A DNA stretch of 64,000 nucleotides from an uncultured Gammaproteobacteria bacterium (GCA_964610305.1 CAZSVL010000006.1:13973-77972), one strand, 5' to 3'; positions 38,858-62,162 are shown, numbered from the stretch's first letter. The notes: a model not told the origin generated them from the sequence alone. A program made the numbers and translations.

Positions 38858-38858
38858 T

Positions 38859-39741: not shown

Positions 39742-40296
39742 ATGACTTCCCAGCAAAAAATAAGTGTGCTTGGACTGGGCGTATTTGCTATTGCTGCAAT
39801 TACGCTTGGTTTGTTGCATATAAATCAGGGAATTATTAGACCCATCACACCAGACACGGCTGATGATACGCTAGAGGTAAGCAAAGAGTTGGCAGAAGAT
39901 ACCACGTACGCTGAGCTCTCAAGCAAGGATACAGACAATGATGGCCTTAATGATTATGAAGAATTGCACGTGTTTGGAACCAGTCCATATCTTACCGATA
40001 CAGACGGTGATGATTTGGATGATGCGGTAGAGATACAATCCGGAGGAGATCCTAATTGTCCAACCGGCAGAACATGTGGGGCGGTGATAGAGGGCAGCAC
40101 ATCCGGAAATTCAGGTGTTGTAGATTCTATTGATCCGGCTGCATCCTACGGCGCTCAGGATATGGAGCCAGATACCTTAAGAAAGCTTTTGGCAGAGATG
40201 GGATTTCCCTCAGAGCAGATAACCTCTTTAAGTGATGATCAGATAGTACAAATTTTTGAGCAAGCTCTTGTGGAGCAAGAAGCGGCAAATAATTAA
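39742..40296 (+). CDS. Membrane-anchored protein with Asp-rich Ca-binding (TSP3/dockerin-like) repeats; first gene of the large + strand block
   Basis: AGGAGG RBS. N-terminal TM segment. DTDNDGLNDYEE and DTDGDDLDDAVE repeats. Confidence 0.5.
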   Translation: MTSQQKISVLGLGVFAIAAITLGLLHINQGIIRPITPDTADDTLEVSKELAEDTTYAELSSKDTDNDGLNDYEELHVFGTSPYLTDTDGDDLDDAVEIQSGGDPNCPTGRTCGAVIEGSTSGNSGVVDSIDPAASYGAQDMEPDTLRKLLAEMGFPSEQITSLSDDQIVQIFEQALVEQEAANN

Positions 40297-40301
40297 TAAC
40301 C

Positions 40302-43300
40302 ATGCAAAAAAGGCACAAGCCACCCGTGTTTAAACGGATAATGCTGGGAATGCTCAGCGGTTTTATGGTTGTGCAGATTGGTTTTGCAGCACTCATGGTT
40401 CCGCGTGTTGCGCATGCGCAGTGGTATGTTTTTGATCCTTTTTCTGTTATCTCTGCTGCCATTGATCAGATTTCAAACGCGGCAAGAGTAGTTGATGAGG
40501 CGGTAGGTGGGGCTCTTTCTACTGCCGTACTTGGCGCTTCTCTTCATTTGGCGCAGTCATTGGCGTATGATTCTGCTCAGTGGATTGCAGATTCAGCTTG
40601 GGGTAAAGAGCCGGCATTTTTTGCCAGCAATATGGGGGATTACCTACTGGATCATGCTACAGACGGAGCCGTAGACGCACTGAACGAAATGTCAAAAGAG
40701 TGGATTGGACTGGATTTGTGTAAGCCAAAGGATCCTACGTTTAATTTGCTCATTCAGCTTGGTTTTAGAAAACATCATGATCCTAAAGTTGATTGTAGTT
40801 TTGATCAGATGAGTGATGCGTGGGATAAAAAGTGGGAGCAATTAAAAGACAAATACAATGGCTGCGCTGGCAACACCTTTGGCTCTGCCAGTGTAGATGA
40901 AAAAGCCACGGGAAGGTCTGCAAAAAAAGGCGGCAACTTGGACGAGTGTATGACCGCCATGGCTAAGACCATGTTTAAGCCAGATAATACAGAGATTGGT
41001 CTTGCCATTAATGCACGGCTAGCGATTACAAAAAAAATAAGAGCAAAAGGACAAATTGCTTTGGAAGAGAGAAAAGAAGGACAAGGGTTTAAATCCAAAA
41101 AAGGTGGCGCAGCTGGTGCCTATATTTCTAAGCCGGCTCCTCTTGTTAAAGAAGAAGGTAAAGCATCTACAAAAGTAAAACAGGAGGACAGAACCTTCCA
41201 GATGATCTCTGGTCAGCTTGGGTCTGGGTATAAGGCCGGTTTGGCTGCTATTCCTACGCTTTTTTTGAGTCAGTTGCTCAGCGCAAATGGAGAAAACTTT
41301 TTTGAATGGTTAAAGAAGCCAGGAGATCAAAAAAAGAGCGATCCGTTTGATAGATTGGCTGATATAGATGGCTTAAGTAATCCTAATTCTGGCGATGGCG
41401 GTTTTGGGTTGTCACCCCAAGCAGAGAGAGCATTTGAGACCATTGCCATAGGAGACCCTTCAACTATTGATATTATTAGCCAGTTTACAGCATGTCCCTC
41501 AGAGGATGGCACGGTTAACCGAGGACCGCATGATTGTGTGATGGATGCTAAATTTGCACAAGCAGTAAGGTTAGCTGATTCTGGCAGGGCAATTACCATA
41601 GCTGAGGCCATTGACAGAACAATGCTACAGCCGGGGTGGAGACTGATTCCACCATCAAACGTGGGCGCTAACTCAGAGGTTTCTTGCAGGAATGAAGCCT
41701 ATTGTTTTTCAAACATAGCAAAATTAAGGCAAGCGAGAATTCTGCCATTGGGTTTTGAAATAGCAGCCTCAGAATCGCCGGAGGGTAGGCACTGGACATT
41801 AAGAGAAGTGGTGGATGGTTTTTTGAGTTGTAATGGAGATGGGCGGAGGGATAACGACCATCCGTTCTGTCATTTAATTGATCCAAATTGGATTTTGAAA
41901 GCGCCACCAGCAAGATGTAACGCTACTGTTCCCGGGCCCATGCTAGAGGCATCTGACACGCTGGTGAGAAAAAATGTATGCGCTGATACCGTAACTTGTC
42001 TACAGGATGATGGTCGCGGAGCGTGCGAGAGCCCGTGGGGGTACTGTCTAAAGGAAAAAAATATTTGGAGAACAGGCGCAGATAGTTGCGCGGCACAATA
42101 TTCTAGTTGTACTACTTACACAGGTAGCAGTGCTGGCGCTCAGAATAAAGTAAGCTATCTTTCAAAAACTATAGATTTTGGCCAGTGTACCGCAGAAGAC
42201 GTGGGATGCCGTGGGTATCTGACGCATCAACTGCTGCAGGATGACGGCACTTATGGTTGGCCTTCTGTTCTAGATGAGCTGGCCGGACGTCCGATGCATT
42301 TAACGGCAAAGGCTCAAGAATGTACAGAGCCCGGGTGCACCTTGTTTACTAAAAAGGATGGCACAGAAGTGCACATCAAAAAGGCGCCTCATTATTTAGG
42401 GTGTTATGATCAGGTTGATCCAGACAGCCCAGCCAGACAAGAGGGGGATTGGCCTCAGAAAATTGCAGACTTGGCGTTGTTGAATCCTGCGGCTGAGTGC
42501 GGTCAGTACGCAGCTGTTTGTGCTGCAGAAGAAGAGGGTTGCACCAGCTACGCGCCAGAAAACGGAGATCCAACCGTGCCAGCCATTGTGGCAGAATCTG
42601 ATTACTGTTCTGATCAGTGTGTGGGTTACGATTCTTACAAACAATTAGAGACAGATTTTGACACCGCAGAATTCCCTATTCACTTTATTCCTAGCACCGC
42701 GCAACAATGTAACGGCGCGTTTGTTGGGTGTGATCAGTTTGTAAATGTAAATAGTGAGCAGTTTGAGCATTATAGTTTTGTAAAACAATGCGAGAGGCCA
42801 GAAGAAGATGATGCCAACTCTGGCGTATTTTACGCGTGGGAAGGATCAGATATTCAGGGGTACCAACTGCGGTCTTACGTTTTGAAGACCTCACTTGAGA
42901 TACCGGGAGGTGGGCAGTGGCTTATGGAGCCATATCCTATTCCTGCTTACGCAGCGGCTTATGATGAAGATCTAATGATTTCTTATCATGATGTTTGCAA
43001 TCAAGAGCTTTATGAGGCTCGTTTGGCAGATCAGGATTGTAGGGAGCTTTTTGACAGAGAGGGGCGCAAATCATACAGACTTTTGGCTCATACCATTACC
43101 GTCTCAGACCAGTGCCATCTTGTCAGAAAGACAAGTGCAGATATTATTGAATTGGGAAACGTTGTCCGTAGGCAAAATGACTGTGAGCAAGATGCAAAAG
43201 GTGTCTGGGAAGATGGGGCATGCAACGTCTGTAAAGGCGGCGGTGAAAACAGAAACGGCACCTGCATGTATTGGGTATTGCCATCAGAAGCCATAAGCTG

Positions 43301-46300
43301 CCCCGCAGAAGCCGCCGGATGCAGAAAATACACCGGAAATGCTGGCGGTAACGTAGAAGAAATTGTTCGCCACACGTTTGAAGATGTGTTGCCAGAAGAT
43401 TTGCAGGCATGGGATCAAGGAGAGGTTTCTGCTGAATCTGTCACCGTTGGCGGACACTCTTGGAAAGCTGTAAACAGAACAAATGTTGTAATACAGGCAG
43501 AAAAAGATTCAAGTTACACGTTTTCTTTCTGGGCAAAAGGTGAACCGGGTTTTGTAACATTAGAGTTTGGCGGGGTAATTGCGGATAATGTAGGCGGAGA
43601 GCCAACCGTGCAAATCGTGAATGATTGGCAACAATTTACACTTGGGCCAATTTACTTTAAAGAGGTCACAGATGTGCTCTCTAGAGCTACTGTTACTTTC
43701 AACATGAATGGCATAAGAGATGCAAATACGTTTTATGTGGATAATGTCATTATAAAAAAGACCATCGCGCACACCACCTTGGTAAAAGACAGCTGGTCCA
43801 CTCCCCTTGCGTGTGATAATAATCCGCAAGATAATTTGCCAGGAGAGGCGCTTGGTTGCAAGGCATATAGAAGCAGTGCTGGTGCCCGCGTGGCGCTTAA
43901 ATCTTTCTCTAATTTGTGTAGAGCAGAGGCAGTAGGATGCGAGAGATTGGTAAATACGCACAACTCTTCTCAATCAGAAGGAAAAACCGTTGGCATGGAG
44001 TGTGGCATGTTCATTGAGGGTCTTGTGGAAGATAGAATACACCCAGACAGCAGAGAGTGTTTTGCAGATATTGATTTAGATGGGGATGGTAGCATTGATA
44101 ATCAAGAGGCGGTGTGTACTGTTCCTGTTGGAGAAGACACATGCTTCTTTGAGATGCCTCGCGCTATAGATTATGACAACAATGATAAAGATATTTACCG
44201 CTCCGGAAGTTCTGTATTTGTGGTACCTGCAGACAGTCTGGCTTACTTGGTGAATAAAGCGGAACATCGCTGCAGTCCAGATCAGATTGGTTGTATGGCA
44301 TTGGGAGAGGTAACGGGAGAGCGCAGCGAGGATAACAGACGCGTCATAAACACCGTCAATAAAATTGTTGTTCCAGATCAGTTTGACAGCATAATGTGTA
44401 ACGCCTCTCTTGTTGGTTGTGAGGCTTATAATGTGAAAAGTTTGGCAGATCAGAGTAACAGAACGGTTTATTTTAAAGATCCGGTAGCGGCTGGAAGGGG
44501 TGTGTGCGAATACAAAAAAGATGTAGACGCCACACTAAGAAATGGCGATGTGGTAACCGGTGCCAGTGGTTGGTTTGTGGCAGGAAGTGATCCTCTCAGG
44601 CCATGTGAAGAAAGGCTACGCAAAATAAATGACTTTCAGTTGCCGAGCCAAGGAGATGCTTTATATGAGTTTGCTCTTGCTCAAGTAGGCGTCTGTCCTG
44701 CTACCGCAAATTCTTGTACAGAGATGGTTGATCCAGCGGATACATCTCAAACGCATCCAGACGGTAAGCCATATTTTGTTTTGGATAACGGAAAGTTGGA
44801 TAAGACAAGTTGTAACAATAAAGCAAGTCTGAAAGAAGGGTGTGTGTTGTTTGATGACAGATCAGTGCCAAACAAGAAGTATCAGGTGGGACAGACCTAT
44901 GATTTAAGTGCTGCTAATGATAATGCGCTTGTAGAACCTGTGTTTATTGGGGCAATTCCTCCTTTTACGTGCAGGGATGATGAGTGTGTAGAAATTCTAG
45001 ATACTCACGAGTCCGTATCTCACCCTGGATTTATCGGTGAGCTTGTGTACCAGGCGCCCCAAGGATCATATTCGTTGATAGATGACGGGCTTTTTGGTGT
45101 CCGTACTTTTACGGTTCTAGACTCATGTAATGCTGGTTTTGCAATGCATACAACTCCAGGCAATACCTATACCGACAATAAGAGGGTGATACACAATGTT
45201 GAAGAAGATCTTTCATTTAGAATTTGTATACCAGAAGATTTGGTTAATACCGATGTAGCAAATACTATTGTTAAGGTGAGTAGAGATAGGGCGTGTTCTG
45301 AGTGGTTGTATTGCCAGTCCCATATGACAGTTACGGACCCTAGTACAAATCAAAAGAAAAATGTTTGTGGATCTGTAGGTGTTTGTGATTCATTTGGGGA
45401 TGTCATAGATGGGATTGCTACCTGTAAGAATGTTGTTGCTAATCCAGGATTTTCAGGAGAAAAATTAACCAAGGCGGCTTACGCAGAGCGTTCGGTTGGT
45501 TGGTATGACGAGGAGTTTACCGGTCATTCGCTCTACAATAAGTATCAAATTTATGACTATACGTTTGTTAAAAGTGATGTGGAGGGTGTGGGCAAAGGAA
45601 GGACTTATTTGGTGAGTATGCCATATGATAGGGAGGCTGCGGCTCTTGCTTGTGAAAATGATGGCGGAATTGATGATGACGGAAGCAATTGTAGGGTTAA
45701 TCGTTCACCGGGTACTTGCATAGCAGGTTTGTGCGTACAAAAGCTTGGCGGCGGGCCAATTGTTTTGGCTGATGCGGGAGAGCAAGCACTGGCGTGCAGA
45801 GGATATGCACACTCGCAAGCGCCATTTACTTTTTCTGGTAAGGATATTACATGGGTTGAGACTGCGGCTAATGGAGACCAAGATGATCAGCAAAAAGTAG
45901 ACGCTACTGCAATAATGCAGTCATTAAATATAAGCGGCTTTGATAACGCAGCCATATGCCAGAAAGGCGATGAATGCGTATGTTCTTACAAAAAAGTGGA
46001 GTATGGAGATGGAAGAGAACAACGTTATTTTGATGTTAATCGGCAAGGAATTCCAAAAGGCGTTTGTGGCGGTGGCTTTACCGCAGGAGTAAACTCCAAA
46101 TCTAAAAAGGGGAGAGCGTGCGATACCCCGGTAGATTGCAGGGATGACAGATATGGTGATAATGACTCCCCTGAAGCTTTAAGAAATAGACGGGATGGCG
46201 ACTGTTTATATAAAACCAATGTGGCAACCTTTAATGGCTGGAGCGGCTTTTGCATAGATCAAGATCAGAGTGTTGAAACGCCGGGCAGTGGTTCAGAAGG

Positions 46301-48494
46301 TAAAGCATGCCAGACGTGGATGCCTTTAGATGTGGTGCCAGGATCAAATAGCATATTTAATCAGTATGTAGAGGCGGGTTATCAGGTTGAAGATCCGGTT
46401 GAAACAACAAGGTATTGCTTGGAAGCAGAAGGCAACGCGCGGAATGCCGGAAATGGTTCTTCTTATAGATACGCGAACGAATTGGATATGTCATGGAGTG
46501 GATACACTAGATTTAGCTACACTGAACGTGATCTTTTTTCCAGATCGCAACGTAAAGATGGGGATTTAAGATTTGAAGAGATTGATTACATAGAGTTTGA
46601 TTGGAAAACTTCTGACAACATGGTTGTTAGGGCTGGTAAGACGCGTCTTGTTAATGATGGGCAAGAAACGGAGTCTGAGGCATACGGCATGTTGCCAAGC
46701 AAACCACGCATCTTTGCTCATTCTAGGCAACGATGTAAGGAGGCGGCATGGATGTCTGGTATAACTACAGGTATTAACAGTAATGAAGACAGGTATACAT
46801 GTGTGACAGCCGATGAGTTTGCAGAAGTACAACCATCTGCACGCGTTAGAGATATGCTTGATCCCGGTGACGCACTGGTTACAATGTTTAGAAGAGATGG
46901 CGCAAGAATACGCGGCTTGGTGCTCATGAGTGATGGTCAGACAGATAGTGACGCGGCATGTTTTCAATATGGCATGCAGGCAGATGTTGATTGCAATGTT
47001 TTTGTAGAGGCTGCAAGAAACACGCAACCCGATCCAGATAGTGGCTGCAACGCACGGCTTGGCTATATTGGAAGTTTTTGTGATGACAAAGATAGTGGTG
47101 ATAGCGGAGACGGGGCTTGGATAGTAATTAATTTTGACGATCAGCACAGATTGGAATCTGAGGTTGTAACCACTTTGGTAAACAGAAATGAGAATGGTGG
47201 AGCAAGCGACGGTTTTGTGGGCGCTACAGCAATTGGATTTGATAGTATAACCGTGGCAAGAAGAGAAGTGTGTAAAACAATTGTTGACATTGCAAATGAA
47301 GAAGAGACGGTGGTGCAAACCAATAGATTATGGAAAGCACAACCTTTGGCAGGCAAAATTGAAGGGGATTACCGCGTGGTTCTTTCTCCTGGCTATAATG
47401 CAAGATGGAATGATTCTAATAAGCCTTTTGCCGGCCTACAAAGTGGCGCAAGCTTAAGTACGGATACTGAGTATTTGCGAGGAACTTACGACGAGGGCTA
47501 TGATTCTGGTGCGGCTAGTTATTCTTGCGCCCGTGGACGATGTGGTCCTTCAGAATCTAACGCTCAGCGTCATACAAAAACGACCCTGCAGGCAGGAATA
47601 CAGGTAATGTCTGAGCTTTTTGGTAAGGTATTTAACGCTTGGTCGCTAAATTCAAATAAGATAGGGTATGATGAATTACTTGACGGCGGGCATTGTGGCG
47701 CAGCGGCGTGCTATGATCAGACTAATGCTAGAGCAAACGCAAAGCCACCTGCGATTGCAAGTGTGAGTGATGATTGCACAGAAGTTTCATGTGGTCTAGG
47801 TAGGGTAGGAAGAATGACAGCAAATGGTAAAGATAGTGGTTATATTTTTGGCAACGGTGTGGCAACGGTTCAGCTGCAATTCTATGCGTGGGCAGATACT
47901 GATAGAATGCCAATTAAAAATGTTTCCGTTTATTGGGGGACAGAGGAAATATTAAAGTCTGGCGGTAATGAAGGCAAGTACAAGAATAGAAAGCCATACT
48001 GTCAGGAAGAAGAAAATACTGGTATAACAACGTGCGCTGGTAATATTGAAGAAACGGCTGGTATAAACATCACCTGCTCAACTCCAGAGGAGTGTTCTGA
48101 TAACGGCGCTGGTGAATGCAGGGGTAGTAGATTAAGTTTTGGTAATACGCCAGACGCGTGTGACACTGGTTTTTATCAGTATCAAGCTACCTATGTCTTT
48201 AGTGAAGATGATCCTGCGTGTCAGAATACTTTTGGCAGTGGCAGTGTTCCCTCTGGTGTAGACGTGGAGAGGGTACGCAGACTTGGATTGACTCCGGGCG
48301 ATAAGTATTGTGCCTTTAAACCACGGGCCATTGTTCAGGATAATTGGGGTTGGTGTAATACGGTTGACAACGCCGGAGCATGGGGAGACTTAAGTGGGGA
48401 TGCAGACGCCGCGAATAGGTGTGATAGACCATCTGATAATGATAATGTTGGAACACCTTATACTGATTGGATAATTGTAGCCGAATCGAAATAG
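40302..48494 (+). CDS. Giant secreted/surface protein (2730 aa), cysteine-containing, no recognisable catalytic domain
   Basis: Single uninterrupted ORF. N-terminal signal/TM segment ending AHAQW. Confidence 0.75.
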   Translation: MQKRHKPPVFKRIMLGMLSGFMVVQIGFAALMVPRVAHAQWYVFDPFSVISAAIDQISNAARVVDEAVGGALSTAVLGASLHLAQSLAYDSAQWIADSAWGKEPAFFASNMGDYLLDHATDGAVDALNEMSKEWIGLDLCKPKDPTFNLLIQLGFRKHHDPKVDCSFDQMSDAWDKKWEQLKDKYNGCAGNTFGSASVDEKATGRSAKKGGNLDECMTAMAKTMFKPDNTEIGLAINARLAITKKIRAKGQIALEERKEGQGFKSKKGGAAGAYISKPAPLVKEEGKASTKVKQEDRTFQMISGQLGSGYKAGLAAIPTLFLSQLLSANGENFFEWLKKPGDQKKSDPFDRLADIDGLSNPNSGDGGFGLSPQAERAFETIAIGDPSTIDIISQFTACPSEDGTVNRGPHDCVMDAKFAQAVRLADSGRAITIAEAIDRTMLQPGWRLIPPSNVGANSEVSCRNEAYCFSNIAKLRQARILPLGFEIAASESPEGRHWTLREVVDGFLSCNGDGRRDNDHPFCHLIDPNWILKAPPARCNATVPGPMLEASDTLVRKNVCADTVTCLQDDGRGACESPWGYCLKEKNIWRTGADSCAAQYSSCTTYTGSSAGAQNKVSYLSKTIDFGQCTAEDVGCRGYLTHQLLQDDGTYGWPSVLDELAGRPMHLTAKAQECTEPGCTLFTKKDGTEVHIKKAPHYLGCYDQVDPDSPARQEGDWPQKIADLALLNPAAECGQYAAVCAAEEEGCTSYAPENGDPTVPAIVAESDYCSDQCVGYDSYKQLETDFDTAEFPIHFIPSTAQQCNGAFVGCDQFVNVNSEQFEHYSFVKQCERPEEDDANSGVFYAWEGSDIQGYQLRSYVLKTSLEIPGGGQWLMEPYPIPAYAAAYDEDLMISYHDVCNQELYEARLADQDCRELFDREGRKSYRLLAHTITVSDQCHLVRKTSADIIELGNVVRRQNDCEQDAKGVWEDGACNVCKGGGENRNGTCMYWVLPSEAISCPAEAAGCRKYTGNAGGNVEEIVRHTFEDVLPEDLQAWDQGEVSAESVTVGGHSWKAVNRTNVVIQAEKDSSYTFSFWAKGEPGFVTLEFGGVIADNVGGEPTVQIVNDWQQFTLGPIYFKEVTDVLSRATVTFNMNGIRDANTFYVDNVIIKKTIAHTTLVKDSWSTPLACDNNPQDNLPGEALGCKAYRSSAGARVALKSFSNLCRAEAVGCERLVNTHNSSQSEGKTVGMECGMFIEGLVEDRIHPDSRECFADIDLDGDGSIDNQEAVCTVPVGEDTCFFEMPRAIDYDNNDKDIYRSGSSVFVVPADSLAYLVNKAEHRCSPDQIGCMALGEVTGERSEDNRRVINTVNKIVVPDQFDSIMCNASLVGCEAYNVKSLADQSNRTVYFKDPVAAGRGVCEYKKDVDATLRNGDVVTGASGWFVAGSDPLRPCEERLRKINDFQLPSQGDALYEFALAQVGVCPATANSCTEMVDPADTSQTHPDGKPYFVLDNGKLDKTSCNNKASLKEGCVLFDDRSVPNKKYQVGQTYDLSAANDNALVEPVFIGAIPPFTCRDDECVEILDTHESVSHPGFIGELVYQAPQGSYSLIDDGLFGVRTFTVLDSCNAGFAMHTTPGNTYTDNKRVIHNVEEDLSFRICIPEDLVNTDVANTIVKVSRDRACSEWLYCQSHMTVTDPSTNQKKNVCGSVGVCDSFGDVIDGIATCKNVVANPGFSGEKLTKAAYAERSVGWYDEEFTGHSLYNKYQIYDYTFVKSDVEGVGKGRTYLVSMPYDREAAALACENDGGIDDDGSNCRVNRSPGTCIAGLCVQKLGGGPIVLADAGEQALACRGYAHSQAPFTFSGKDITWVETAANGDQDDQQKVDATAIMQSLNISGFDNAAICQKGDECVCSYKKVEYGDGREQRYFDVNRQGIPKGVCGGGFTAGVNSKSKKGRACDTPVDCRDDRYGDNDSPEALRNRRDGDCLYKTNVATFNGWSGFCIDQDQSVETPGSGSEGKACQTWMPLDVVPGSNSIFNQYVEAGYQVEDPVETTRYCLEAEGNARNAGNGSSYRYANELDMSWSGYTRFSYTERDLFSRSQRKDGDLRFEEIDYIEFDWKTSDNMVVRAGKTRLVNDGQETESEAYGMLPSKPRIFAHSRQRCKEAAWMSGITTGINSNEDRYTCVTADEFAEVQPSARVRDMLDPGDALVTMFRRDGARIRGLVLMSDGQTDSDAACFQYGMQADVDCNVFVEAARNTQPDPDSGCNARLGYIGSFCDDKDSGDSGDGAWIVINFDDQHRLESEVVTTLVNRNENGGASDGFVGATAIGFDSITVARREVCKTIVDIANEEETVVQTNRLWKAQPLAGKIEGDYRVVLSPGYNARWNDSNKPFAGLQSGASLSTDTEYLRGTYDEGYDSGAASYSCARGRCGPSESNAQRHTKTTLQAGIQVMSELFGKVFNAWSLNSNKIGYDELLDGGHCGAAACYDQTNARANAKPPAIASVSDDCTEVSCGLGRVGRMTANGKDSGYIFGNGVATVQLQFYAWADTDRMPIKNVSVYWGTEEILKSGGNEGKYKNRKPYCQEEENTGITTCAGNIEETAGINITCSTPEECSDNGAGECRGSRLSFGNTPDACDTGFYQYQATYVFSEDDPACQNTFGSGSVPSGVDVERVRRLGLTPGDKYCAFKPRAIVQDNWGWCNTVDNAGAWGDLSGDADAANRCDRPSDNDNVGTPYTDWIIVAESK

Positions 48495-48566: not shown

Positions 48567-49496
48567 CTAACGAGTCATTGTAAATTTGCAGAAAACGCGA
48601 AAAAAACTCCGTGGTTCAGTGCTGCTATCAAGGTAGTCGCCTTCACACGTACCGGTGATAGTATTTTTGTCTGCAGAGAGTGTTCCTGAGAAGAGCAGCT
48701 GGTGATCGGGGTCATCTCTGTCGCCCACATGAGATCTGTGAAAAAACCCGTTTGGTTGGGGATCTACCCGGCCGTTTCCTCCACGAAATCCATGAAGTGC
48801 GGAGGCACCACTCGTTTTCACATAGAAAGAGCATCCTTCTTGCCTGATGACTCTCTCGTTTTCTCTCCACATGTCCCGATCGTAGCGATGCTGCATCATA
48901 TCGTAATCATAGTCAACGGGAGTGACATCGGAATACGTGATATTCCACGTACCATCAAACAAGGGATCGGCTCCATTACAGCCCCAGCTTTCATCTACGC
49001 TGCCGTTGCAGTTGTCATCCACCTCATTGCCGTATTTTTCTTCAAGAGCTGGGATATCAGGATCTTTATCATTGCAGTCAAGACCGCCGCATTCAATGGC
49101 AGATTCGCCATCACGGTCATAATCTAGCGGCTGAAACAGGCACGTGCCGGAGTCATGATCGCACAGGCCATCCTTGCAGGGATCCGTATTTTGGCATGAG
49201 AAATCGCCGGCACATGGAACGTCACTGCGCTCTACCTTATCTCCGGTCCACCAGGGATCAATTTCCTGAGGATCGTCACTATTTTCACTTCCTGCATCCG
49301 CATCTTCATTCTTCACGCAGGTTTTTGAATCAAAGCAGGTGTAATCTTGCGGACAGCTTTTATTGCTGCAGTCAAGATCGTGGCCGTCAGGTCCGCTACC
49401 TTCACCATGCGTTCCACCGGGTGCCGCCTCATCGCCGCCACAGGAAACCAGCAGACTCATCATCAAAAGAGCAATAGTGCTTTGCAAAATTCTCAT
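48567..49496 (-). CDS. Cysteine-rich lipoprotein with MopE-like putative metal-binding motif
   Basis: LLVSCGG lipobox. CGGLDCNDKDPDIPALEEKYGNEVDDNCNGSVDE matches DCDD...PGAxExCDGxDNDCDGxxDE. Confidence 0.55.
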   Translation of the reverse strand: MRILQSTIALLMMSLLVSCGGDEAAPGGTHGEGSGPDGHDLDCSNKSCPQDYTCFDSKTCVKNEDADAGSENSDDPQEIDPWWTGDKVERSDVPCAGDFSCQNTDPCKDGLCDHDSGTCLFQPLDYDRDGESAIECGGLDCNDKDPDIPALEEKYGNEVDDNCNGSVDESWGCNGADPLFDGTWNITYSDVTPVDYDYDMMQHRYDRDMWRENERVIRQEGCSFYVKTSGASALHGFRGGNGRVDPQPNGFFHRSHVGDRDDPDHQLLFSGTLSADKNTITGTCEGDYLDSSTEPRSFFRVFCKFTMTR

Positions 49497-49596
49497 GTAT
49501 CCTCCGTTTTTTTGCTAAGCTGAGTTGTTTTTTATCGCTACCATACTAGCGTAGCATGTTTTTTTAGCACGAATCAAGAAATTTGTCAATAGTAAT

Positions 49597-50781: not shown

Positions 50782-50895
50782 TGATTAAAACGTATCACTT
50801 TATTGAGAGCATTTCAAGCTTTTAAACAAAAAAAAGGGGGTGTGCTCGCTAGCACATCCCCAAAAAAAGGGGTGCCTCAGGCGCACCCGGGCGCG

Positions 50896-51066: not shown

Positions 51067-51199
51067 GCTTCACCTCCAGTGTGGATGGGTACTTCCACCG
51101 TATTGGGTTTTTGCTATTGTGTCAAGTTCAACTGTGGATAAATAGGGAGAGCCTTTTTAGATTTTTTAAAAAAAGATCCTCGGTAAGAGGATCATTATG

Positions 51200-52846
51200 T
51201 TATGGGTAGCACTCGCCGTAGGCGCATGCTTGGTCGTCATCGCAGGGGCTGTTGCAATCGCCGCAATGTGTTGTGTCAAACATGAGGTTGGCACAAATAC
51301 TGCCTTGCGGACCGCGATCATCGGGGCACAGCGCCATGTCTAGGTCTTCATCGCATTCCATGCAAGAGGCCTCTAGCGCTTCTTCCCAATCGCCAAATTC
51401 AGAGCTGCAGCCAAGTTCTGGTTGACTATCAACGCAGCTTTCATCGCATTGGCCACAATTTTCTGGGTCAAAGGGGTGGACGCACTGTCCATCACACTCC
51501 AGAATACACTCGCACTCGCCCTGATTACAATTTTTATCGGGGTCGCATTCTAAGCCGCATTCCCCGCAGTTTTCAATGTTGTTGCTCAGATTCCTGCAGG
51601 TGCCATCGCACACAACACATTGTCCATCGCACGGAACTTCTTCGCCAAAGTCGTTGAAGTATGTTTCGCAGCCGCATTCAATGCCATTTACGCATTGCGT
51701 GCGATCGGGGCAAATATTGCCGCAGCGTCCACAGTTTTGTTCGTCGCTGGGCCAACACTGTCCTCCGCAGACAATACAGTTGCCATTACAGTCGTTTCTG
51801 AAAACGTCTGTTACGCACTCGCAATTACCTTCTATGCATCGCTCAAAGGCTTCGCATTGCACACCGCAACCACCACAGTTTTGGTGGTCTGTGGAAAGAT
51901 TTAGGCATTCGCCGCTGCATGCGGTTTCGCCTTCCACTCTGCATCTACACACGGAGTTTACGCACTCGACGTTCTGCGGGCATCTGTTGCCGCAGGCTCC
52001 ACAGTTATCTTCATCGCGTCCGATACGAACACATGCATCTTGTCCATCTACAGAGCAGACAATCGTGTTATCTCCTTCGCACTCGCTGCAGGAGCCGTTA
52101 GCACATTGAATATCACCTAGGCACGTGTTGTTACACTCTCCGCAATGCTCATTAGAGGTAAGATCAAATTCTTCATCTACCTCTCCATCGCAGTCATCAT
52201 CTTGATTATTGCACAGCTCTGGCGCATCAGGATAAGCGTCTGCGCTATTGTCATTGCAGTCTTCTCCGCCACATACGCGTGGGGGGTGATCATCTGCGTC
52301 TCCATCTAAGACACTGAATATGCAGGTACGAGAACTCTCTTCACAAACTCCCACTTGGCATGCGTCTTCGATAGCGCAATCTTCACTTGTTCTGCACGGA
52401 TCAGCCACTTTGCAACCCTCTAGGGGGTGACAAGCTTCTTGATCGGGACAGCGGGCGTGAACCGGAGTAATCAGGCATCCACCTACGGGGTCACAGCGCT
52501 CATCTGTGCACTCTAGGCTGTCAGAGCAGTCTAGCTGCTCTCCGGCCACGCACATGCATGCAACACACGTTTCCTCTCCGTTGCACACCGTTTCATCAAC
52601 GCAGTCTGCGTTTTCTTCACATTCGCATGGCAGCGCTTCGCCTTCACCCTCGCCTTCAGTTGGGATTTCTCCTTCTCCTTCGGCGATAGCTTCTCCCTCA
52701 CCCTCAGCGATTATCTCGCCTTCACCTTCAGAAGAGATCTCGTCCTCTCCCTCACCTTCTCCAACAATGCTTCCGTTGGGGAATTTTTCGGGATCAGAGC
52801 TGCTGCAGGCTGCCAGAGCAATACTCAGCAGAGTAAGTGTTCTCAT
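51200..52846 (-). CDS. Secreted acidic cysteine-rich repeat protein (GEGEGE tracts, CGxCGxxC repeats, MopE-like motif)
   Basis: Signal peptide with lipobox-like AACSS. Repeated NCGxCGxxCxxxxxCxxGxC units. GGEDCNDNSADAYPDAPELCNNQDDDCDGEVDE. Confidence 0.55.
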   Translation of the reverse strand: MRTLTLLSIALAACSSSDPEKFPNGSIVGEGEGEDEISSEGEGEIIAEGEGEAIAEGEGEIPTEGEGEGEALPCECEENADCVDETVCNGEETCVACMCVAGEQLDCSDSLECTDERCDPVGGCLITPVHARCPDQEACHPLEGCKVADPCRTSEDCAIEDACQVGVCEESSRTCIFSVLDGDADDHPPRVCGGEDCNDNSADAYPDAPELCNNQDDDCDGEVDEEFDLTSNEHCGECNNTCLGDIQCANGSCSECEGDNTIVCSVDGQDACVRIGRDEDNCGACGNRCPQNVECVNSVCRCRVEGETACSGECLNLSTDHQNCGGCGVQCEAFERCIEGNCECVTDVFRNDCNGNCIVCGGQCWPSDEQNCGRCGNICPDRTQCVNGIECGCETYFNDFGEEVPCDGQCVVCDGTCRNLSNNIENCGECGLECDPDKNCNQGECECILECDGQCVHPFDPENCGQCDESCVDSQPELGCSSEFGDWEEALEASCMECDEDLDMALCPDDRGPQGSICANLMFDTTHCGDCNSPCDDDQACAYGECYP

Positions 52847-52855
52847 CTCTCTCCC

Positions 52856-53905
52856 TTAGCTGCAGCGTCCGTCTGTGCAACGCGTGCCTTGGGGGCATCG
52901 GTTGTTGCACTGTCGGCAGTGTTCATTGGTTGAGCGCCAGTCAAAACATTCGCCATTGCAGAAAATATCGTCATCGCCTCGGCACCGACACTCTCCAGCC
53001 ACACACCGTACAAGCGGAGCCTGGCAAACGTTGCCGCACCGCCCACAATCATTAAAGCTAATCTGCAGATCAACGCAGAACTGGCCGCAGTCTGTATGAG
53101 TTTCTTCAACGCACTGACAATTTCCGCCGTAGCAGTGAAGGTGAGCATCGCACTCTGTGTTGCACGCTCCGCAATGTCGCGCAGATGAATCAAAGTCAAA
53201 ACCTTCATCAATCTGGCCATCGCAGTCATCATCTAGCTCATTGCAGCGTTCGGGGGCCTCAGGGTAGATTTCATGGTCATCGTCCCCGCAATCCTGACCA
53301 CCACAGGCAAGAGAGGCAAAGGTGTCATTGTCAGAATCTACCAAACGGTACTCGCACGTGCCCGTTTCCAGGTTGCACATGCCGGTCTGACACGGATCTT
53401 CAGAATCGCAGTCATCATTGCTAAGACACGGCGGTCTTCCTTGGCAATCCTGCTGCACATCGCAGATTTCATGCTCAGAGCACCATTCATGCCGGGGAAC
53501 GTAATCACACTGGCCGTCTGCTGGATCGCAAACGCCTTGCGTGCAGCCTACGCCATCATCAGGGCAGATAAAAGGTTCGCTTCTCTGACAGACGCATTGG
53601 TTGCATACTTCAATGCCATTGCAAATGTTGCCATCCTGGCAATCTTCATCTGTTAGGCAGGGGCACGGAGCCTCTTCTCCCTCACCTTCTCCTTCAGAGG
53701 GGTTAAGCGGGTCGTTTCCTTCAACTTCTCCTTCACGCGGATCAGATGCCCTATCACCCTCTCCTGATATATCGTCACCGTCCCCCTCTTGCTCAGAAAT
53801 AGCAGGAGGAGCTTCATCTTGGTCTTCAACTGACTCTTCAGGAATGGGGGTAGGGTTACTGCCGCAGCCGAGCGCAAACATGATAAAAAGACCGATAAAT
53901 CTCAT
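52856..53905 (-). CDS. Secreted cysteine-rich repeat lipoprotein, paralog-like of 51200..52846
   Basis: LGCGS lipobox. CGGQDCGDDDHEIYPEAPERCNELDDDCDGQIDE. CGxCNxxC repeats. Confidence 0.55.
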   Translation of the reverse strand: MRFIGLFIMFALGCGSNPTPIPEESVEDQDEAPPAISEQEGDGDDISGEGDRASDPREGEVEGNDPLNPSEGEGEGEEAPCPCLTDEDCQDGNICNGIEVCNQCVCQRSEPFICPDDGVGCTQGVCDPADGQCDYVPRHEWCSEHEICDVQQDCQGRPPCLSNDDCDSEDPCQTGMCNLETGTCEYRLVDSDNDTFASLACGGQDCGDDDHEIYPEAPERCNELDDDCDGQIDEGFDFDSSARHCGACNTECDAHLHCYGGNCQCVEETHTDCGQFCVDLQISFNDCGRCGNVCQAPLVRCVAGECRCRGDDDIFCNGECFDWRSTNEHCRQCNNRCPQGTRCTDGRCS

Positions 53906-56861: not shown

Positions 56862-56883
56862 ACCAAAGGTCCCTTGTTACTAT

Positions 56884-58272
56884 ATGATTTTATTAACAGC
56901 AACAGAAACAAAGAAAATTCTGCGCCAAGCAGATGACAGAAAAGCTGAGCTTGTAGAGCAAAAGCTTATTCCTATGGTTACCAAGGCGCTAGGGGCTTAT
57001 TATGATGATAAGGCCACGGTTTTGTCCGTTGGGAGGCTTTTTGGTATGGCTGTTTTAGGTGGTGCAAAATATTTAAGGAATGTACCGCAAGAACTCATTG
57101 AAGGATTTGGAACCAATGAAGATTTTGCTTATACCATCTCAGACAAAATTGTAGAGCAGTTTGAAAAGGAATTTGAAGCGTTTGTGGGCAGTGTAAGCGC
57201 CATTAGGATTCCGTGGAGGTCAAAGATAAAGCCGGAATTGTTGAGTGCTAAGAGCGAGAAAAAGGAAAGCAAGGCTATAGCTGCTAAGCCCAAAGTAAAA
57301 GAAGTGGCAACTAGTCCTAAGGTGGTACGGGCGGCACAAACGCCTCCTGCTCCAGCTAAGGTTGCCCCCCGCGCCCCAGCAAAGCCATCACAACATCGCA
57401 GACATCACGGAGAGGATCAAGATGAGCTGTCAACTCATAAAAAAGCAGGGACAGATCATTCAAACGGACATTCAAGGCTAGAAAAACGCGTGGCTATGAT
57501 AGAACAGCTCTCAGGTCTTCATTTTGATGATGTCTCAAAAGAGCAGCGTTTTAGAACCATTGTGAGGCCTGCACTTAAAGGGATAAAACGACCATCAGAT
57601 ACGTCCCGATTACTGGGACTAGCTGCAGATCAGGGTGGAATGGGGCTGTCTAGGCAAAAAGTGGCAGAAGTGGCCGGTCTTTTAGAACGATTAAGAGCAA
57701 AAGATTTAGAGGTTGCGCATCGCTCGCAATTGCAAAAAAAGCACGAGGCTCAGTTGCCAGTTCCGGTAGATACCAAGGCTCAGCTTCCAAAAAAAATAGA
57801 AAAGCAAGAGGGAAAGAAGAGGATTGATACGCTCATAAAGCAAGACGTGGCAAATCAGTCATTTGATTTTAAAGCAGCGCTGAAAAGTAAGGCAAAAAAG
57901 CCCACCGTAATGCCAAGCAGAAAAATGCATGATGTGGCTGCAAGACCGCTAACCATGGGGCCTGTAGAGGTGCTCCGTAGTCTTAATCTCACTGATTTTA
58001 GAAGATTATCCCCTGTGCCCGGAACGGCCGTAGAAAAAATTAAGGACAAGTTGGGGCTTCTGCGCAAACGCGGTGTGGATCAGTTTGCCTCTGGCCTAAA
58101 GGCCTATCAGGACAGCCCGCTTTATGGAATTTATGTAAAAACGCTGCATCAGAGCCTTAGTGAGGATAGTCAGTTGGATGATGCCGTTTCAACCACCACG
58201 GATGATCCTGACAGATTTACCAAAGAAGAATTTACCGCCGTTATGCAATTAAATAGGGCATTGCAGTTTTAG
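56884..58272 (+). CDS. Hypothetical protein (462 aa), Pro/Ala/Lys-rich middle region
   Basis: ORF in an operon context. Confidence 0.5.
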   Translation: MILLTATETKKILRQADDRKAELVEQKLIPMVTKALGAYYDDKATVLSVGRLFGMAVLGGAKYLRNVPQELIEGFGTNEDFAYTISDKIVEQFEKEFEAFVGSVSAIRIPWRSKIKPELLSAKSEKKESKAIAAKPKVKEVATSPKVVRAAQTPPAPAKVAPRAPAKPSQHRRHHGEDQDELSTHKKAGTDHSNGHSRLEKRVAMIEQLSGLHFDDVSKEQRFRTIVRPALKGIKRPSDTSRLLGLAADQGGMGLSRQKVAEVAGLLERLRAKDLEVAHRSQLQKKHEAQLPVPVDTKAQLPKKIEKQEGKKRIDTLIKQDVANQSFDFKAALKSKAKKPTVMPSRKMHDVAARPLTMGPVEVLRSLNLTDFRRLSPVPGTAVEKIKDKLGLLRKRGVDQFASGLKAYQDSPLYGIYVKTLHQSLSEDSQLDDAVSTTTDDPDRFTKEEFTAVMQLNRALQF

Positions 58273-58275
58273 TCT

Positions 58276-58710
58276 ATGGCCGGAAGATTTACTGTTCCAC
58301 AATTTATAGATGCCGAGCCAAAAATAATGGGGCCGCTTTCTGTTCGTCAGTTTATTGTAATGATTGTTGCGGTGCTCCTGATGTTTGTCTCTTGGAAGCT
58401 GGCAGATCTTGTTCTGGCCGGGTTTTTAATTGCTATTTGGGGAGGTTTGGGTTTGTTGTTTGCATTTGTTAAAATAAATGGACAAATATTTCATATATTT
58501 TTGCTTAGTTTTTTAAGAACAATAAAAAAGCCTAAATTGCGGATTTGGTATAAAGAATATTCAAAGGAAGAGTTGGAGTTTTACACCGCCTCTGCTCCAG
58601 AGCCAATTGTAGAGAAAAAGGCGCGCAAACACATAAGAAAAAGCCGGCTCAATGAGCTATCGCTGGTAGTAAATACGGGTGGCGCATATAATCCAGAGGA
58701 ATATCAATAG
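58276..58710 (+). CDS. Small two-TM protein, possible VirB3/PrgI-like T4SS component
   Basis: Two hydrophobic helices. Positioned immediately upstream of VirB4, as VirB3-like genes are. Confidence 0.35.
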   Translation: MAGRFTVPQFIDAEPKIMGPLSVRQFIVMIVAVLLMFVSWKLADLVLAGFLIAIWGGLGLLFAFVKINGQIFHIFLLSFLRTIKKPKLRIWYKEYSKEELEFYTASAPEPIVEKKARKHIRKSRLNELSLVVNTGGAYNPEEYQ

Positions 58711-58720
58711 GCATTAGTTT

Positions 58721-59419: not shown

Positions 59420-61614
59420 GCTTTAAACCATCACAATCAAAAACGGTTTTAGCAAAGGGAAAGAAAGGAGACCTCTCTGACAAAGTAAAGGCGCAATATG
59501 AGAAGGATATGGCCGCCAGAGAGGCGGGGGTGGAAAAGGGCGTGAGCGCTCTGGAAGAAGAGCGCGTCTACAGACAAGGCGTAGTTGCGGTAAGAGATGT
59601 CATTGCTCCGTCTGCCTTTAAAGTAGACCCATCTTACGTTCACGTGGGAGCGCTTTTGGCCAGAACCGTGTATGTGGTTACCTATCCACGCTATATTTCT
59701 GTTGGATGGTTTGCGCCTATTATAAACATGAGTGTCACCACAGATATCTCTATGTTTGTGTATCCGGTAAAAAATAGCGTTATTCTTAAGCAGCTCAAGA
59801 AAAAAGTGGGTACGCTTGAGTCTCAGATGGCGCAAGATCAAGAAAAAGGCGCCGCGCGGGATCCGCTGCAAGAGACCGCGCTGAGGGATGTAGAAGCGCT
59901 TCGTGATTCTCTTACGCAAGGAATAGAGCATTTTTTCCAGTACGCACTTTACATTACGCTGTACGCCAAGACACCAGAGGAGTTGGATAAAGTTACCGAG
60001 CAAGTAGAATCTGTGTTTGCTGGAAAGCTTATTTACACCAAACGTGTGCTCTATCAGGCAGAACAAGGCTTTAACAGCACGTTGCCACTAGCAAATGATG
60101 AGATAATGGTAGCGTTTAATATGAATTCAAGCCCTATTGCTAGCAGCTTTCCGTTTATTTCTTCTGATCTTACCTCTGACAACGGCATTTTGTATGGCGT
60201 GAACCGCCACAATAATTCTTTAATTATTTTTGATAGATTTTCTTTGCCTAATGCAAATGCTGTGGTCTTTGCTACCTCTGGTGCAGGAAAATCGTATGCT
60301 GTTAAGTTAGAAATTTTGCGTTCTCTCATGGTGGGAACAGAGGTAATCGTGATTGACCCAGAAATGGAGTACAAAGACTTAACAGAAGCTGTTGGTGGAA
60401 CGTATATTAATCTGTCTTTATCCTCTGAGAGTAAAATCAATCCTTTTGATTTGCCACGGCCTACTACGGGAGACGCATCTACGGACGATATCATCAGAAG
60501 CGCGGTTATTACCGTAAAGGGAATTTTGCGTGTGATGCTTGGAAAATTCACCACTCAAGAAGATTCTATGTTAGATAGAGCCCTTCTTGAGACCTACGCA
60601 AAAAAAGATATTACGCCAGAGACAAATTTGCTAGAGTTGGGCCCAACTGATATGCCAATTCTTACGGATTTGCAAGATATTTTAGAGGGAATGACCGGAT
60701 CAGAAGAGCTACAGACAAAAATTAAGAAATACACAGAAGGAACTTTCTCTGGGCTACTCAATTCATACACCAATGTGTCTATGGACAATAACATGGTGGT
60801 GTTCTCGGTGAGAGATTTGGAGGATGAGTTGCGTCCGGTGGGAATTTTTACCATTGTGAATTACATTTGGAACGTGGTGAGATCTGAGCGTAAAAAGCGT
60901 ATATTGGTAGTTGATGAGGCGTGGTGGCTCATGCAGCATGAGGATAGTGCCAGATTTATCTTTACTCTTGTTAAAAGATGTAGAAAGTACTGGCTTGGTG
61001 TTACCACAATCACACAGGACGTTGCAGACTTTTTGGGTAGCCAGTATGGAAGAGCTATCGTGACAAACGGCTCAATGCAGCTGCTACTCAAACAGTCCCC
61101 TGCCGCCATAGATAAAATAGTGGAGGTGTTCATGATGACGCAAGGAGAGAAGTTTTTGCTTCTAGAATCTGCCGTGGGAGAGGGAATATTTTTTGCCGGC
61201 CAGAATCATGCGGCAATAAAAATCATCGCTTCCTACAATGAAGACCGGCTTGTTACCACCAATCCAGAAGAGCTTTTGGGAATTGATGAGAGTAAAAAGC
61301 AGTTTAAGGAAGCTATGGATGCTCATAAGGCTGCGGGCAAAAAAGCCGCTGGCGCAGGAAAAGAGGGAGAGCCCTCAGAGATGGCAATTGAAACAGAGAA
61401 AGAAGCCGCTGACGCAGATGCAAAAACGGCTGCTGATAATGAAATAAAAGCAGTAAAAGAGGCGCCAAAAGCTGAACCAAAAAAACAGGCTCCTAAAAAG
61501 GCGGCGCCAGCGAAAGAAGCAAAGAAGACTGCTCCTGCTGCAGCCAAACCGGCAAAACCGGCTGCAAAAAAACCTGCTGCTACTCCTAAGCCACCGCAAC
61601 CACCTAAGGCATGA
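59416..61614 (+). CDS. VirB4-like type IV secretion/conjugation ATPase (ATPase domain) with Lys/Ala/Pro-rich C-terminal tail
   Basis: Walker A FATSGAGKSY and Walker B ILVVDEAWW motifs. Typical VirB4 C-terminal region. Confidence 0.7.
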   Translation: MSFKPSQSKTVLAKGKKGDLSDKVKAQYEKDMAAREAGVEKGVSALEEERVYRQGVVAVRDVIAPSAFKVDPSYVHVGALLARTVYVVTYPRYISVGWFAPIINMSVTTDISMFVYPVKNSVILKQLKKKVGTLESQMAQDQEKGAARDPLQETALRDVEALRDSLTQGIEHFFQYALYITLYAKTPEELDKVTEQVESVFAGKLIYTKRVLYQAEQGFNSTLPLANDEIMVAFNMNSSPIASSFPFISSDLTSDNGILYGVNRHNNSLIIFDRFSLPNANAVVFATSGAGKSYAVKLEILRSLMVGTEVIVIDPEMEYKDLTEAVGGTYINLSLSSESKINPFDLPRPTTGDASTDDIIRSAVITVKGILRVMLGKFTTQEDSMLDRALLETYAKKDITPETNLLELGPTDMPILTDLQDILEGMTGSEELQTKIKKYTEGTFSGLLNSYTNVSMDNNMVVFSVRDLEDELRPVGIFTIVNYIWNVVRSERKKRILVVDEAWWLMQHEDSARFIFTLVKRCRKYWLGVTTITQDVADFLGSQYGRAIVTNGSMQLLLKQSPAAIDKIVEVFMMTQGEKFLLLESAVGEGIFFAGQNHAAIKIIASYNEDRLVTTNPEELLGIDESKKQFKEAMDAHKAAGKKAAGAGKEGEPSEMAIETEKEAADADAKTAADNEIKAVKEAPKAEPKKQAPKKAAPAKEAKKTAPAAAKPAKPAAKKPAATPKPPQPPKA

Positions 61615-62162
61615 TAGAAAACAGAAGAACTCTATTTTTGGCTTTAATAGGATTTGGAGTTCTTGTTTTAATTGGCATTTTTATTTTTTTGAGGGGAGCG
61701 TTGGGTGGTGACGAGCAAGAAGTAGTTGAGCAAAGCACGCCGTTTACTCAGCCAGCTACCGTTTCAGACAATACAGAGCCTGTTGTACAGCTAGATCCGG
61801 CAGAGCATGCAGCGCAGTCGCTTGCTAGAATTTTTGTAGAGCGTATTGGCAGCTATTCTAGCCAGAGCAATTATCAGAATATTGATGATTTGATGGATTT
61901 GATGACGGCTCGCGTGCAGGATTGGGCGCAGGGGTTAAAAACTGAGCAAAACACCGATGAATATACGGGCGTTACCACAAGAGGACTCTCACTGAAAACC
62001 ATTTCTTTTAATGAAAAAAGAAATGCCGTTATAGAAGTGTCTGCGCAAAGACAATATAGCGCAGATGATAAAGAAGACAGCATAGAATACCAAAAAGCTC
62101 AGGTTCACTTGGTTTACACGGCAGGAGAGTGGCTGGTAGACGGGATTTTTTGGCAAGATTAA
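61611..62162 (+). CDS. Membrane-anchored hypothetical protein (last gene of the block)
   Basis: N-terminal TM segment. ATGA overlap with the upstream gene. Confidence 0.45.
   Translation: MIENRRTLFLALIGFGVLVLIGIFIFLRGALGGDEQEVVEQSTPFTQPATVSDNTEPVVQLDPAEHAAQSLARIFVERIGSYSSQSNYQNIDDLMDLMTARVQDWAQGLKTEQNTDEYTGVTTRGLSLKTISFNEKRNAVIEVSAQRQYSADDKEDSIEYQKAQVHLVYTAGEWLVDGIFWQD

Follow-up and report, generated by a model that had tools for sequence, protein, structure and literature searches.

A chromosomal Patescibacteria-type type IV secretion locus and an upstream gene pair for a predicted calcium-binding anchor and a giant cysteine-rich secreted protein

The stretch of DNA analysed here (GCA_964610305.1, CAZSVL010000006.1:13973-77972) is 64,000 nucleotides in length and is referred to as the window. 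Between positions 39742 and 62162 it carries one long block of plus-strand genes. The upstream part of the block encodes a membrane-anchored protein with thrombospondin type-3 (TSP3) repeats and a giant secreted protein; the downstream part (54033–62162) contains the gene set of a minimal, single-membrane VirB3/4/6/8-like translocon, that is, of a type IV secretion system (T4SS), plus one conserved cytoplasmic protein. Four minus-strand genes fill 48567–53905, between the giant and the VirB6-like gene. All open reading frames (ORFs) that a preliminary description had placed in the block are present (Table 1). The ORF of the TSP3 gene opens upstream at 39715, with the ATG at 39742; 39742 is likewise the start in the public gene call, and the 184-residue product matches the public protein entry verbatim. 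The TSP3 gene ends at 40296 and the giant ORF starts at 40302, leaving a gap of 5 nt. The preliminary description had many genes overlapping by 4 nt; such overlaps occur at just two junctions (TrsD/VirB4 and VirB4/VirB8-like), whereas the remaining junctions are gaps of 3–22 nt.

Table 1. Features of the block and of its immediate surroundings (positions in the window; aa, amino acids; TM, transmembrane segment; CBM, carbohydrate-binding module)
Feature	Coordinates	Strand	Basis or remark
TSP3-repeat membrane-anchored protein, 184 aa	39742..40296	+	Pfam TSP3_bac, one TM
Giant secreted protein, 2730 aa, 104 Cys	40302..48494	+	large unannotated family
Sec-type signal peptide of giant, aa 1-39	40302..40418	+	basic n-region, hydrophobic core, VAHA followed by QW
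CBM4/CBM16/CBM22-like beta-sandwich of giant, ~aa 1020-1170	43359..43811	+	profile vs PDB, Foldseek
Cys-rich lipoprotein, 309 aa, lipobox LLVSC	48567..49496	-	weak Pfam Cu-binding_MopE match
M16-family (insulinase-like) peptidase homologue, 394 aa	49597..50781	-	Pfam Peptidase_M16 and M16_C
Very Cys-rich lipoprotein, 548 aa, 81 Cys	51200..52846	-	Stig1/MopE-like repeats
Cys-rich lipoprotein, 349 aa, 45 Cys, lipobox ALGC	52856..53905	-	MopE and Stig1 motifs
Extended VirB6/TrbL-like channel protein, 942 aa	54033..56861	+	TM scan, TrbL matches of homologues, fold matches
Conserved T4SS-linked protein, 462 aa, no TM, no Cys	56884..58272	+	slot conserved across relatives
PrgI/VirB3-like protein, 144 aa, two TM	58276..58710	+	Pfam PrgI
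TrsD-like protein, 232 aa	58721..59419	+	VirB4 N-terminal domain as own gene
VirB4 ATPase body, 732 aa	59416..61614	+	NCBIfam CD1110, Pfam P-loop_TraG, PDB 4ag5
VirB8-like bitopic protein, 183 aa	61611..62162	+	N-terminal TM helix and ~130-aa domain
Terminator-like hairpin	62357..62376	+	8-bp stem and T run 3' of T4SS block; consensus match only
ComF(C)-like phosphoribosyltransferase-fold protein	62382..63050	-	weak Pfam Pribosyltran and DZR_2 matches

Synteny of the T4SS was counted over 80 species-level loci found via VirB4 relatives (L001–L080). The VirB4 body of the window matches the NCBIfam CD1110 family at 1.7e-104 (350.6 bits, curated cut-off 325), Pfam P-loop_TraG at 5e-26 and PDB 4ag5, the solved C-terminal domain of VirB4, at 5e-47; Walker A (ATSGAGKS) and Walker B (ILVVDE), read from the sequence, are both intact. 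The 232-aa protein encoded just upstream matches NCBIfam VirB4_plasma at 2.4e-11 (profile positions 92–237) and TrsD at 5e-6, both under the curated cut-offs of those models; it also aligns with positions 11–102 of the CD1110 profile. VirB4 had been described as split, and the comparison bears this out: in 78 of 78 related loci the N-terminal part forms an ORF of its own, closed by a stop codon, on which ground a frameshift artefact was rejected. Judged by these matches, TrsD and the VirB4 body are together one complete VirB4, and the split is real and conserved. The C-terminal tail of VirB4 (residues ~640–732, 61330–61611) is ~90 aa in length, Ala/Lys/Pro-rich, histone-H1-like and lineage-variable. 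It is missing in most relatives, whose alignments end at residues ~632–660; just that of L024 reaches beyond. The tail could bind nucleic acid.

The 144-aa protein, described as a two-TM VirB3/PrgI-like protein, is recognised by Pfam PrgI at 5.7e-7 (30.4 bits, curated cut-off 27) and has two hydrophobic segments; its gene is found in 74 of the 80 loci. For the 942-aa protein, the VirB6/TrbL-like identity proposed earlier gained no direct hidden Markov model (HMM) match, but it did gain support from homologues and from fold comparison. The protein has ~7–8 TM helices within residues 1–350 by TM scan, followed by a ~520-aa hydrophilic, Cys-free extension with an acidic tail; with this extension it fits what the FEMS review calls an 'extended VirB6'. 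Searches of Pfam, NCBIfam and PDB sequences returned no direct match for the window protein. Among its homologues, 12 of 37 match Pfam TrbL (PF04610, best 5.2e-7), and precomputed matches include PF19590 and PF04610. The AlphaFold2 model of residues 1–420 has a pLDDT of 77.6, and its three best Foldseek matches in the PDB are all R388 TrwI/VirB6, at weak scores (E 0.017–0.05, TM-score 0.26–0.50). Position and topology also fit, and the protein is most readily read as VirB6/TrbL-like.

The last gene of the block, described earlier as encoding a further membrane protein, is found in 72 of the 80 loci, and its product can be narrowed to VirB8-like by one Pfam VirB8 match (4.7e-5, 23.8 bits, cut-off 23.2). 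The assignment is marginal, since the window member alone reaches the Pfam threshold: 29 other aligned family members and the family profile gave no VirB8 match. The topology, one N-terminal TM helix and a small domain, is as expected of VirB8. The 462-aa protein stays without a family, as first described, but its slot is conserved; in 68 of the 80 loci its gene sits after the VirB6-like gene and before PrgI, and the C-terminal ~115 aa are its conserved part. As a single sequence it has no match in Pfam, NCBIfam or PDB; a family profile gained none in the PDB either, and Pfam run on all aligned members was also empty. The family profiles of the VirB6-like, VirB8-like and 462-aa proteins found no solved relative. 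The T4SS proteins carry 0–1 Cys each.

The order VirB6-like, 462-aa, PrgI, TrsD, VirB4, VirB8-like, comF is kept in 53–80 of the 80 loci and in essentially every sufficiently long one. comF is present in 73 of them, in nearly all directly downstream of the VirB8-like gene on the same strand (L026 is an exception). In the window, comF is inverted and convergent with the T4SS, with the terminator-like hairpin between them; this looks like a local inversion. The inverted comF overlaps an ABC ATPase gene at 63028–63732. On the other side, ksgA (38850–39674) lies upstream of the TSP3 gene.

The closest VirB4 relatives (65–75% identity, 420 confirmed matches) are all in metagenome-assembled genomes (MAGs) of Patescibacteria, labelled mostly Magasanikbacteria, Uhrbacteria and Falkowbacteria, which belong to the GTDB class ABY1. 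By this kinship the organism of the window is an ABY1-class Patescibacterium, Magasanikbacteria-like. Many third-party annotation (TPA) MAGs titled 'uncultured Gammaproteobacteria bacterium' (L002, L005–L007, L010 and others) contain a Patescibacteria-type locus with a VirB4 65–73% identical, and their Gammaproteobacteria labels are almost certainly wrong. We know of no ABY1-class organism in culture.

The window is chromosomal DNA. It contains the genes of NusA, YidC, ribosomal protein S2, EF-Ts, GAPDH, GroEL, two release factors, Sua5 and KsgA; its GC content is even (~0.43–0.47) except for a Cys/Gly/Asp-rich island; tRNA and Rfam scans of the window gave zero matches. No relaxase and no VirD4/TcpA-type coupling protein was found among the window ORFs scanned with Pfam over the 64 kb. 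The block is therefore chromosomal and not mobile, given the housekeeping surroundings, the same neighbourhood in L084, the even GC and the lack of a relaxase or coupling-protein domain. These data bear on one alternative, that the block is a conjugative element of Gram-positive type, either an integrative conjugative element (ICE) or a plasmid remnant, which transfers DNA to other cells. The VirB4 is indeed closest to conjugative ATPases of the MPF-FATA class (CD1110, Mbov_0397 ICE, TraC), and TrsD and PrgI are components of the pGO1 and pCF10 conjugation systems (PMC12102498). However, besides relaxase and coupling protein, neither an integrase nor a VirB1-like hydrolase was found in the 64 kb, and the block has no lytic transglycosylase, CHAP, NlpC/P60 or M23 domain. 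The chromosomal position among housekeeping genes is identical in many species, the GC equals that of the flanks, and relaxases are nearly absent from the lineage, being known in just ~100 Patescibacteria genomes (PMC12102498). We consider a conjugative element highly improbable. The region 54033–62162 is, on its gene content, a Patescibacteria-type, Gram-positive-like (MPF-FATA-derived) chromosomal T4SS with the ABY1 gene arrangement.

Such systems are already known from the ultrasmall Patescibacteria, and the preliminary description overstated the novelty of this one. Quinonero-Coronel et al. 2025 (PMC12102498) described a VirB4 clade that is specific to Patescibacteria and akin to MPF-FATA; TrsD, PrgI/VirB3 and VirB6 are widespread in it, and VirB8 was detected almost solely in ABY1. 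There, ksgA is a frequent neighbour, and ABY1 shows a link to comF, recG and radA. In Wang et al. 2023 (PMC10633639), transposon sequencing in S. epibionticum showed the saccharibacterial T4SS to be essential for epibiotic growth. These two papers already describe TrsD, PrgI, VirB6, the ABY1 VirB8 and the comF/ksgA neighbours, and the core of the present T4SS is of this known kind. Neither of them mentions the 462-aa protein or the upstream TSP3–giant pair; 'giant', 'TSP3' and 'PF18884' are absent from their texts and text-form supplements, and the text-form supplements of PMC12102498 contain no TSP3, CBM_4_9, comF or RrnaAD. As far as the searchable literature shows, the pair and the 462-aa protein are unannotated and unreported as T4SS neighbours.

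The giant has one hydrophobic segment (residues 13–36), and cleavage of its signal peptide is predicted between VAHA and QW; in the family alignment A39 is invariant and the consensus PAxAQ is kept. A signal peptide and the lack of a catalytic domain had both been claimed for this protein, and both claims stand: there was no significant match in Pfam, NCBIfam, PHROG or PDB sequences, and no catalytic domain was found. A frameshifted fusion of unrelated genes was ruled out by 32 relatives, mostly of 2500–3700 aa, which are collinear over the full length (for P0002, 49% identity at 100% coverage). An exhaustive search with residues 1–1200 gave 1352 clusters at 50% identity, mostly of 2500–3300 aa, and in 1077 cases the match was below 1e-30; a search with the family profile returned no new sequences. 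None of the relatives bears a functional name. About 60 cysteines are invariant in the family alignment. A C-x5-7-GC motif occurs eight times in the protein, which lacks long internal repeats; its C-terminus, with a DNWGWCN motif, is conserved and ends in ...DWIIVAESK, without an LPXTG motif. A polymorphic-toxin reading was rejected because of this conserved C-terminus. The only recognisable domain is a jelly-roll beta-sandwich, which is CBM-like by profile comparison with the PDB (5e-6) and by Foldseek, and is predicted to be of a sugar-binding type (CBM4/22-like). The AlphaFold2 model of residues 1–1200 is partly confident (mean pLDDT 61.8); residues 1–390 are low-confidence helices, and the confident blocks 390–550 and 800–1010 have no structural match.

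The genome encodes a second giant secreted protein, at 6393–12386 (plus strand), with 1997 aa, 157 Cys, TSP_3 repeats and DUF5667. It is preceded by five plus-strand ORFs (142–496 aa, within 34–6211) with no Pfam match. Homology between the two giants was rejected, as they are unrelated by BLAST. In L083, a member of the 2730-aa family sits in the place equivalent to the 1997-aa gene, upstream of a methyltransferase, NusA and YidC. The Falkowbacterial locus is preceded by the gene of a DsbA-like thioredoxin (L081/L082, 5253–6029, minus strand), which fits disulfide-rich exported proteins.

The preliminary description had also offered the giant as cargo, and it can be asked whether it is an effector secreted by the T4SS. 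It lies close to the T4SS, and the locus offers no other obvious candidate for a substrate. In monoderm bacteria, T4SS substrates originate in the cytoplasm. By contrast, the conserved Sec signal peptide with its AxA site and the cysteines, 104 in number and largely invariant, point to a protein that leaves the cell by Sec and folds oxidatively outside it, with extracellular disulfides, rather than to transport by the T4SS, and the conserved C-terminus is unlike an effector-type variable domain. We therefore hold the cargo idea to be barely credible.

In the TSP3 protein, an N-terminal TM helix is combined with two thrombospondin type-3 loops (DxDxDGxxDxxE) and with a Cys pair that is conserved; Pfam TSP3_bac matches at 1.1e-5 (25.6 bits, cut-off 25). 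In the alignment of 28 family members, D63, D65, D67, D71 and E74 of the first loop, D86, D88, D90, D94 and E97 of the second, and C106 and C112 are invariant. From these residues the 184-aa protein is predicted to be a calcium-binding membrane anchor. Giant-centred counts were made from 191 metagenome relatives and 80 loci. Of 34 metagenome loci whose upstream flank is complete, ~32 (~94%) have the TSP3 gene immediately before the giant, and the TSP3 stop codon adjoins the giant ORF in 33 metagenome loci as well as in L081, L083, L084 and L085. The two genes form a tight unit.

Does this pair belong to the T4SS? Seen from VirB4, 23 loci have the giant immediately before the VirB6-like gene and on its strand; it was recognised there as the C-terminal part of an ORF running into the locus. 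It is adjacent upstream in 20 of 26 close relatives with at least 3 kb visible upstream. Same-strand adjacency holds down to 25–30% protein identity, across Magasanik-, Falkow- and Uhrbacteria; the order ksgA, TSP3, giant, ..., VirB6, ..., VirB4 is found also in a Falkowbacterium whose giant is ~30% identical. The link drawn in the preliminary description is overstated: adjacency holds among close relatives but in only about half of the giant family, and in the window the two blocks are separate transcription units. On this evidence we read the TSP3–giant pair as a surface adhesion module, which may well, though not certainly, serve the T4SS.

The best overall explanation, which we hold with slightly better than even confidence, is a non-conjugative chromosomal Patescibacteria T4SS of the ABY1 class together with an upstream adhesion pair that forms a separate transcription unit. 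A hexamer of VirB4/TrsD would dock on PrgI and VirB6 and would power the transfer of macromolecules through VirB6, across the sole membrane, at the site of contact with the host cell. The giant would be held at the surface by the TSP3 anchor via calcium and would bind glycans of the host cell wall; it might thereby supply the adhesion that Gram-positive T4SSs get from dedicated adhesins. As to cargo and direction, conjugation is unlikely, since no relaxase or coupling protein was found in the 64 kb and comF is linked. The single most likely function, though still somewhat short of an even chance, is ComB/Ced-like import of nucleic acid, with the DNA handed to ComF; export of effector proteins into the host comes second, as a somewhat weaker possibility. 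Reviews call the function of these T4SSs 'completely unknown' and discuss effector delivery and DNA import alike.

Several observations weigh against this explanation. For the T4SS part, the VirB6-like protein of the window has no direct HMM match and its fold matches are weak, and the VirB8 identity hangs on a single marginal match. For DNA import, comF is inverted in the window genome, and Saccharibacteria need their T4SS but not ComEC-dependent competence (PMC10633639). For the pair, the counts from the giant side are lower: a VirB6-like gene or T4SS lies within 10 kb in 21 of 43 giant loci with at least 5 kb downstream, and in the remaining 22 no VirB6-like gene was found even by HMM. Elsewhere, giants adjoin M23/LTD/fn3 proteins, C39+MopE Cys-rich proteins, AspRS, EF-G or a glycosyltransferase. 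In L083 the pair is far from VirB6, beside NusA, YidC and SecDF; ~9 kb downstream of that giant, after NusA, YidC, SecDF and a 461-aa ORF, lies a VirD4/TrwB-like coupling-protein gene (30244–31103). In the window, ~5.5 kb of opposite-strand genes lie between the pair and the T4SS block, the two being separate transcription units, and the T4SSs of other Patescibacteria classes function without the giant family. L084 shows the same housekeeping neighbourhood, with ksgA, Sua5 and the release factor as syntenic as the giant. Conserved order alone is therefore weak evidence of coupling, because ksgA, which is surely functionally unrelated, is equally syntenic.

A rival reading, with the T4SS as described, takes the TSP3–giant pair as an independent envelope or adhesion module, for general host attachment or surface architecture, that stays near the T4SS only through an ancestrally conserved ksgA...comF neighbourhood. 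The count of 21 in 43 giant loci, the separate transcription units in the window, the presence of further surface proteins and housekeeping genes around other giants, the synteny shared by ksgA and other housekeeping genes, the L083 arrangement and the other giant Cys-rich proteins encoded by the genome (for example, at 6393–12386) agree with it. It fits less well with the same-strand adjacency in 20 of the 26 close relatives and across the three lineages; moreover, no other adhesin is associated with the T4SS here, and the published survey reports none. An independent module is a serious minority possibility in our judgement. That the giant truly works with the T4SS we likewise put somewhat below even. 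A more specific proposal is that TSP3 anchor and giant are the extracellular arm of the ABY1 T4SS, a calcium-stabilised, glycan-binding structure for host contact, which would replace a pilus or LPXTG adhesin and position the VirB6 channel at the host envelope, with the Cys-rich lipoproteins as further parts. We regard this as rather unlikely; if true, T4SS accessory apparatuses would gain a new architectural class, confined to one large uncultured lineage.

The machine encoded here is not of a new kind. What the locus offers is a set of candidates for missing extracellular and cytoplasmic parts of a T4SS that is essential in the single Patescibacteria species tested, namely a giant family of more than 1000 clusters with its TSP3 anchor, and the 462-aa operon protein. 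Should the pair turn out to be coupled to the T4SS, it would open a way to study how a major uncultured lineage recognises its hosts; otherwise it remains a surface-protein family of wide distribution that merits a family definition.

Three of the four minus-strand genes between the giant and the VirB6-like gene encode Cys-rich lipoproteins with lipoboxes, acidic GEGE linkers and a Cys content of up to 15%. Homologous Cys-rich genes lie beside the giant in L084–L088, L094 and L162. In particular, homologues of the 309-aa lipoprotein come just after the giant in L085–L088 and L094, those of the 548-aa lipoprotein lie between giant and VirB6 in L084 and L085, and L085 encodes, in the corresponding place, a homologue of the 349-aa lipoprotein with 64% identity. 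The M16 peptidase homologue was not found at the equivalent position in relatives. C39+MopE proteins also occur near giants without a T4SS (L111, L124 and L161).

A VirB2-like pilin was not found either: none of the ORFs scanned over the 64 kb matched T4SS_pilin or TrbC, and 54033–62162 has no free intergenic space. Two small paralogous secreted proteins, at 33070–33531 (153 aa) and 33704–34102 (132 aa), both on the minus strand between GroEL and a release-factor gene, carry signal peptides and match no family; they were rejected as VirB2 pilins, not being VirB2-like. In the Falkowbacterium locus L081, a 200-aa ORF (18183–18785) between the giant and the VirB6-like gene has a hydrophilic N-terminal half and two C-terminal hydrophobic segments and may be pilin-like. 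The window lacks a counterpart, and an ORF at the same place in L084 looks spurious. Upstream of the Falkowbacterial locus, L081 and L082 also encode a 342–355-aa protein with a weak T4SS_pilin match (2238–3305, minus strand), among pyruvate:ferredoxin oxidoreductase genes.

Compared with known systems, the T4SS of the window is closest in design to that of the Patescibacteria clade (PMC12102498, PMC10633639). The two share VirB4, a separate TrsD and PrgI/VirB3, probably also VirB6 and, on a marginal match, the ABY1 VirB8; both are chromosomal, lack a relaxase and have ksgA and comF as neighbours. Different from that clade, the window has no detected VirB2-like pilin array, which is frequent there but not universal, and no VirB1-like hydrolase. 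The conjugative MPF-FATA T4SSs of Gram-positive bacteria have in common with the window a VirB4 above the CD1110 cut-off, PrgI and TrsD homologues and the absence of outer-membrane core proteins; however, the window has no relaxase, no nearby coupling protein, no PrgK/TrsG-type hydrolase and no LPXTG adhesin (PrgB), and its VirB6-like protein has a 520-aa hydrophilic extension.

The DNA-import systems ComB of Helicobacter pylori and Ced of Sulfolobus resemble the locus in that a VirB4-type ATPase works with VirB3/6/8-like partners, relaxase and coupling protein are absent, and competence genes (here comF) are linked. There is no sequence kinship beyond the generic VirB4 fold, and the CedB match (1e-10) is far under the cut-off; in addition, ComB crosses a diderm envelope and has VirB7/9/10 homologues. 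Like the extended VirB6 proteins of Rickettsiales, the VirB6-like protein has a polytopic core followed by a large hydrophilic domain, but it is much shorter (942 aa in total, against up to ~4300 aa), single-copy and found in a monoderm host. Different from CBM4/CBM16/CBM22 modules and from the CBM-like receptor-binding domain RBD1 of C. difficile CDTb, the beta-sandwich of the giant is embedded in a 2730-aa non-enzymatic Cys-rich protein. Large Cys-rich extracellular proteins with signal peptides and proposed roles in attachment have been described in Peribacteria, which belong to the candidate phyla radiation (CPR) (Anantharaman et al. 2016, PMC4736985); they are of another family, with no T4SS linkage described there. 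As a further likeness, MopE and Myxococcus-like Cys repeats are present in genes near the giant.

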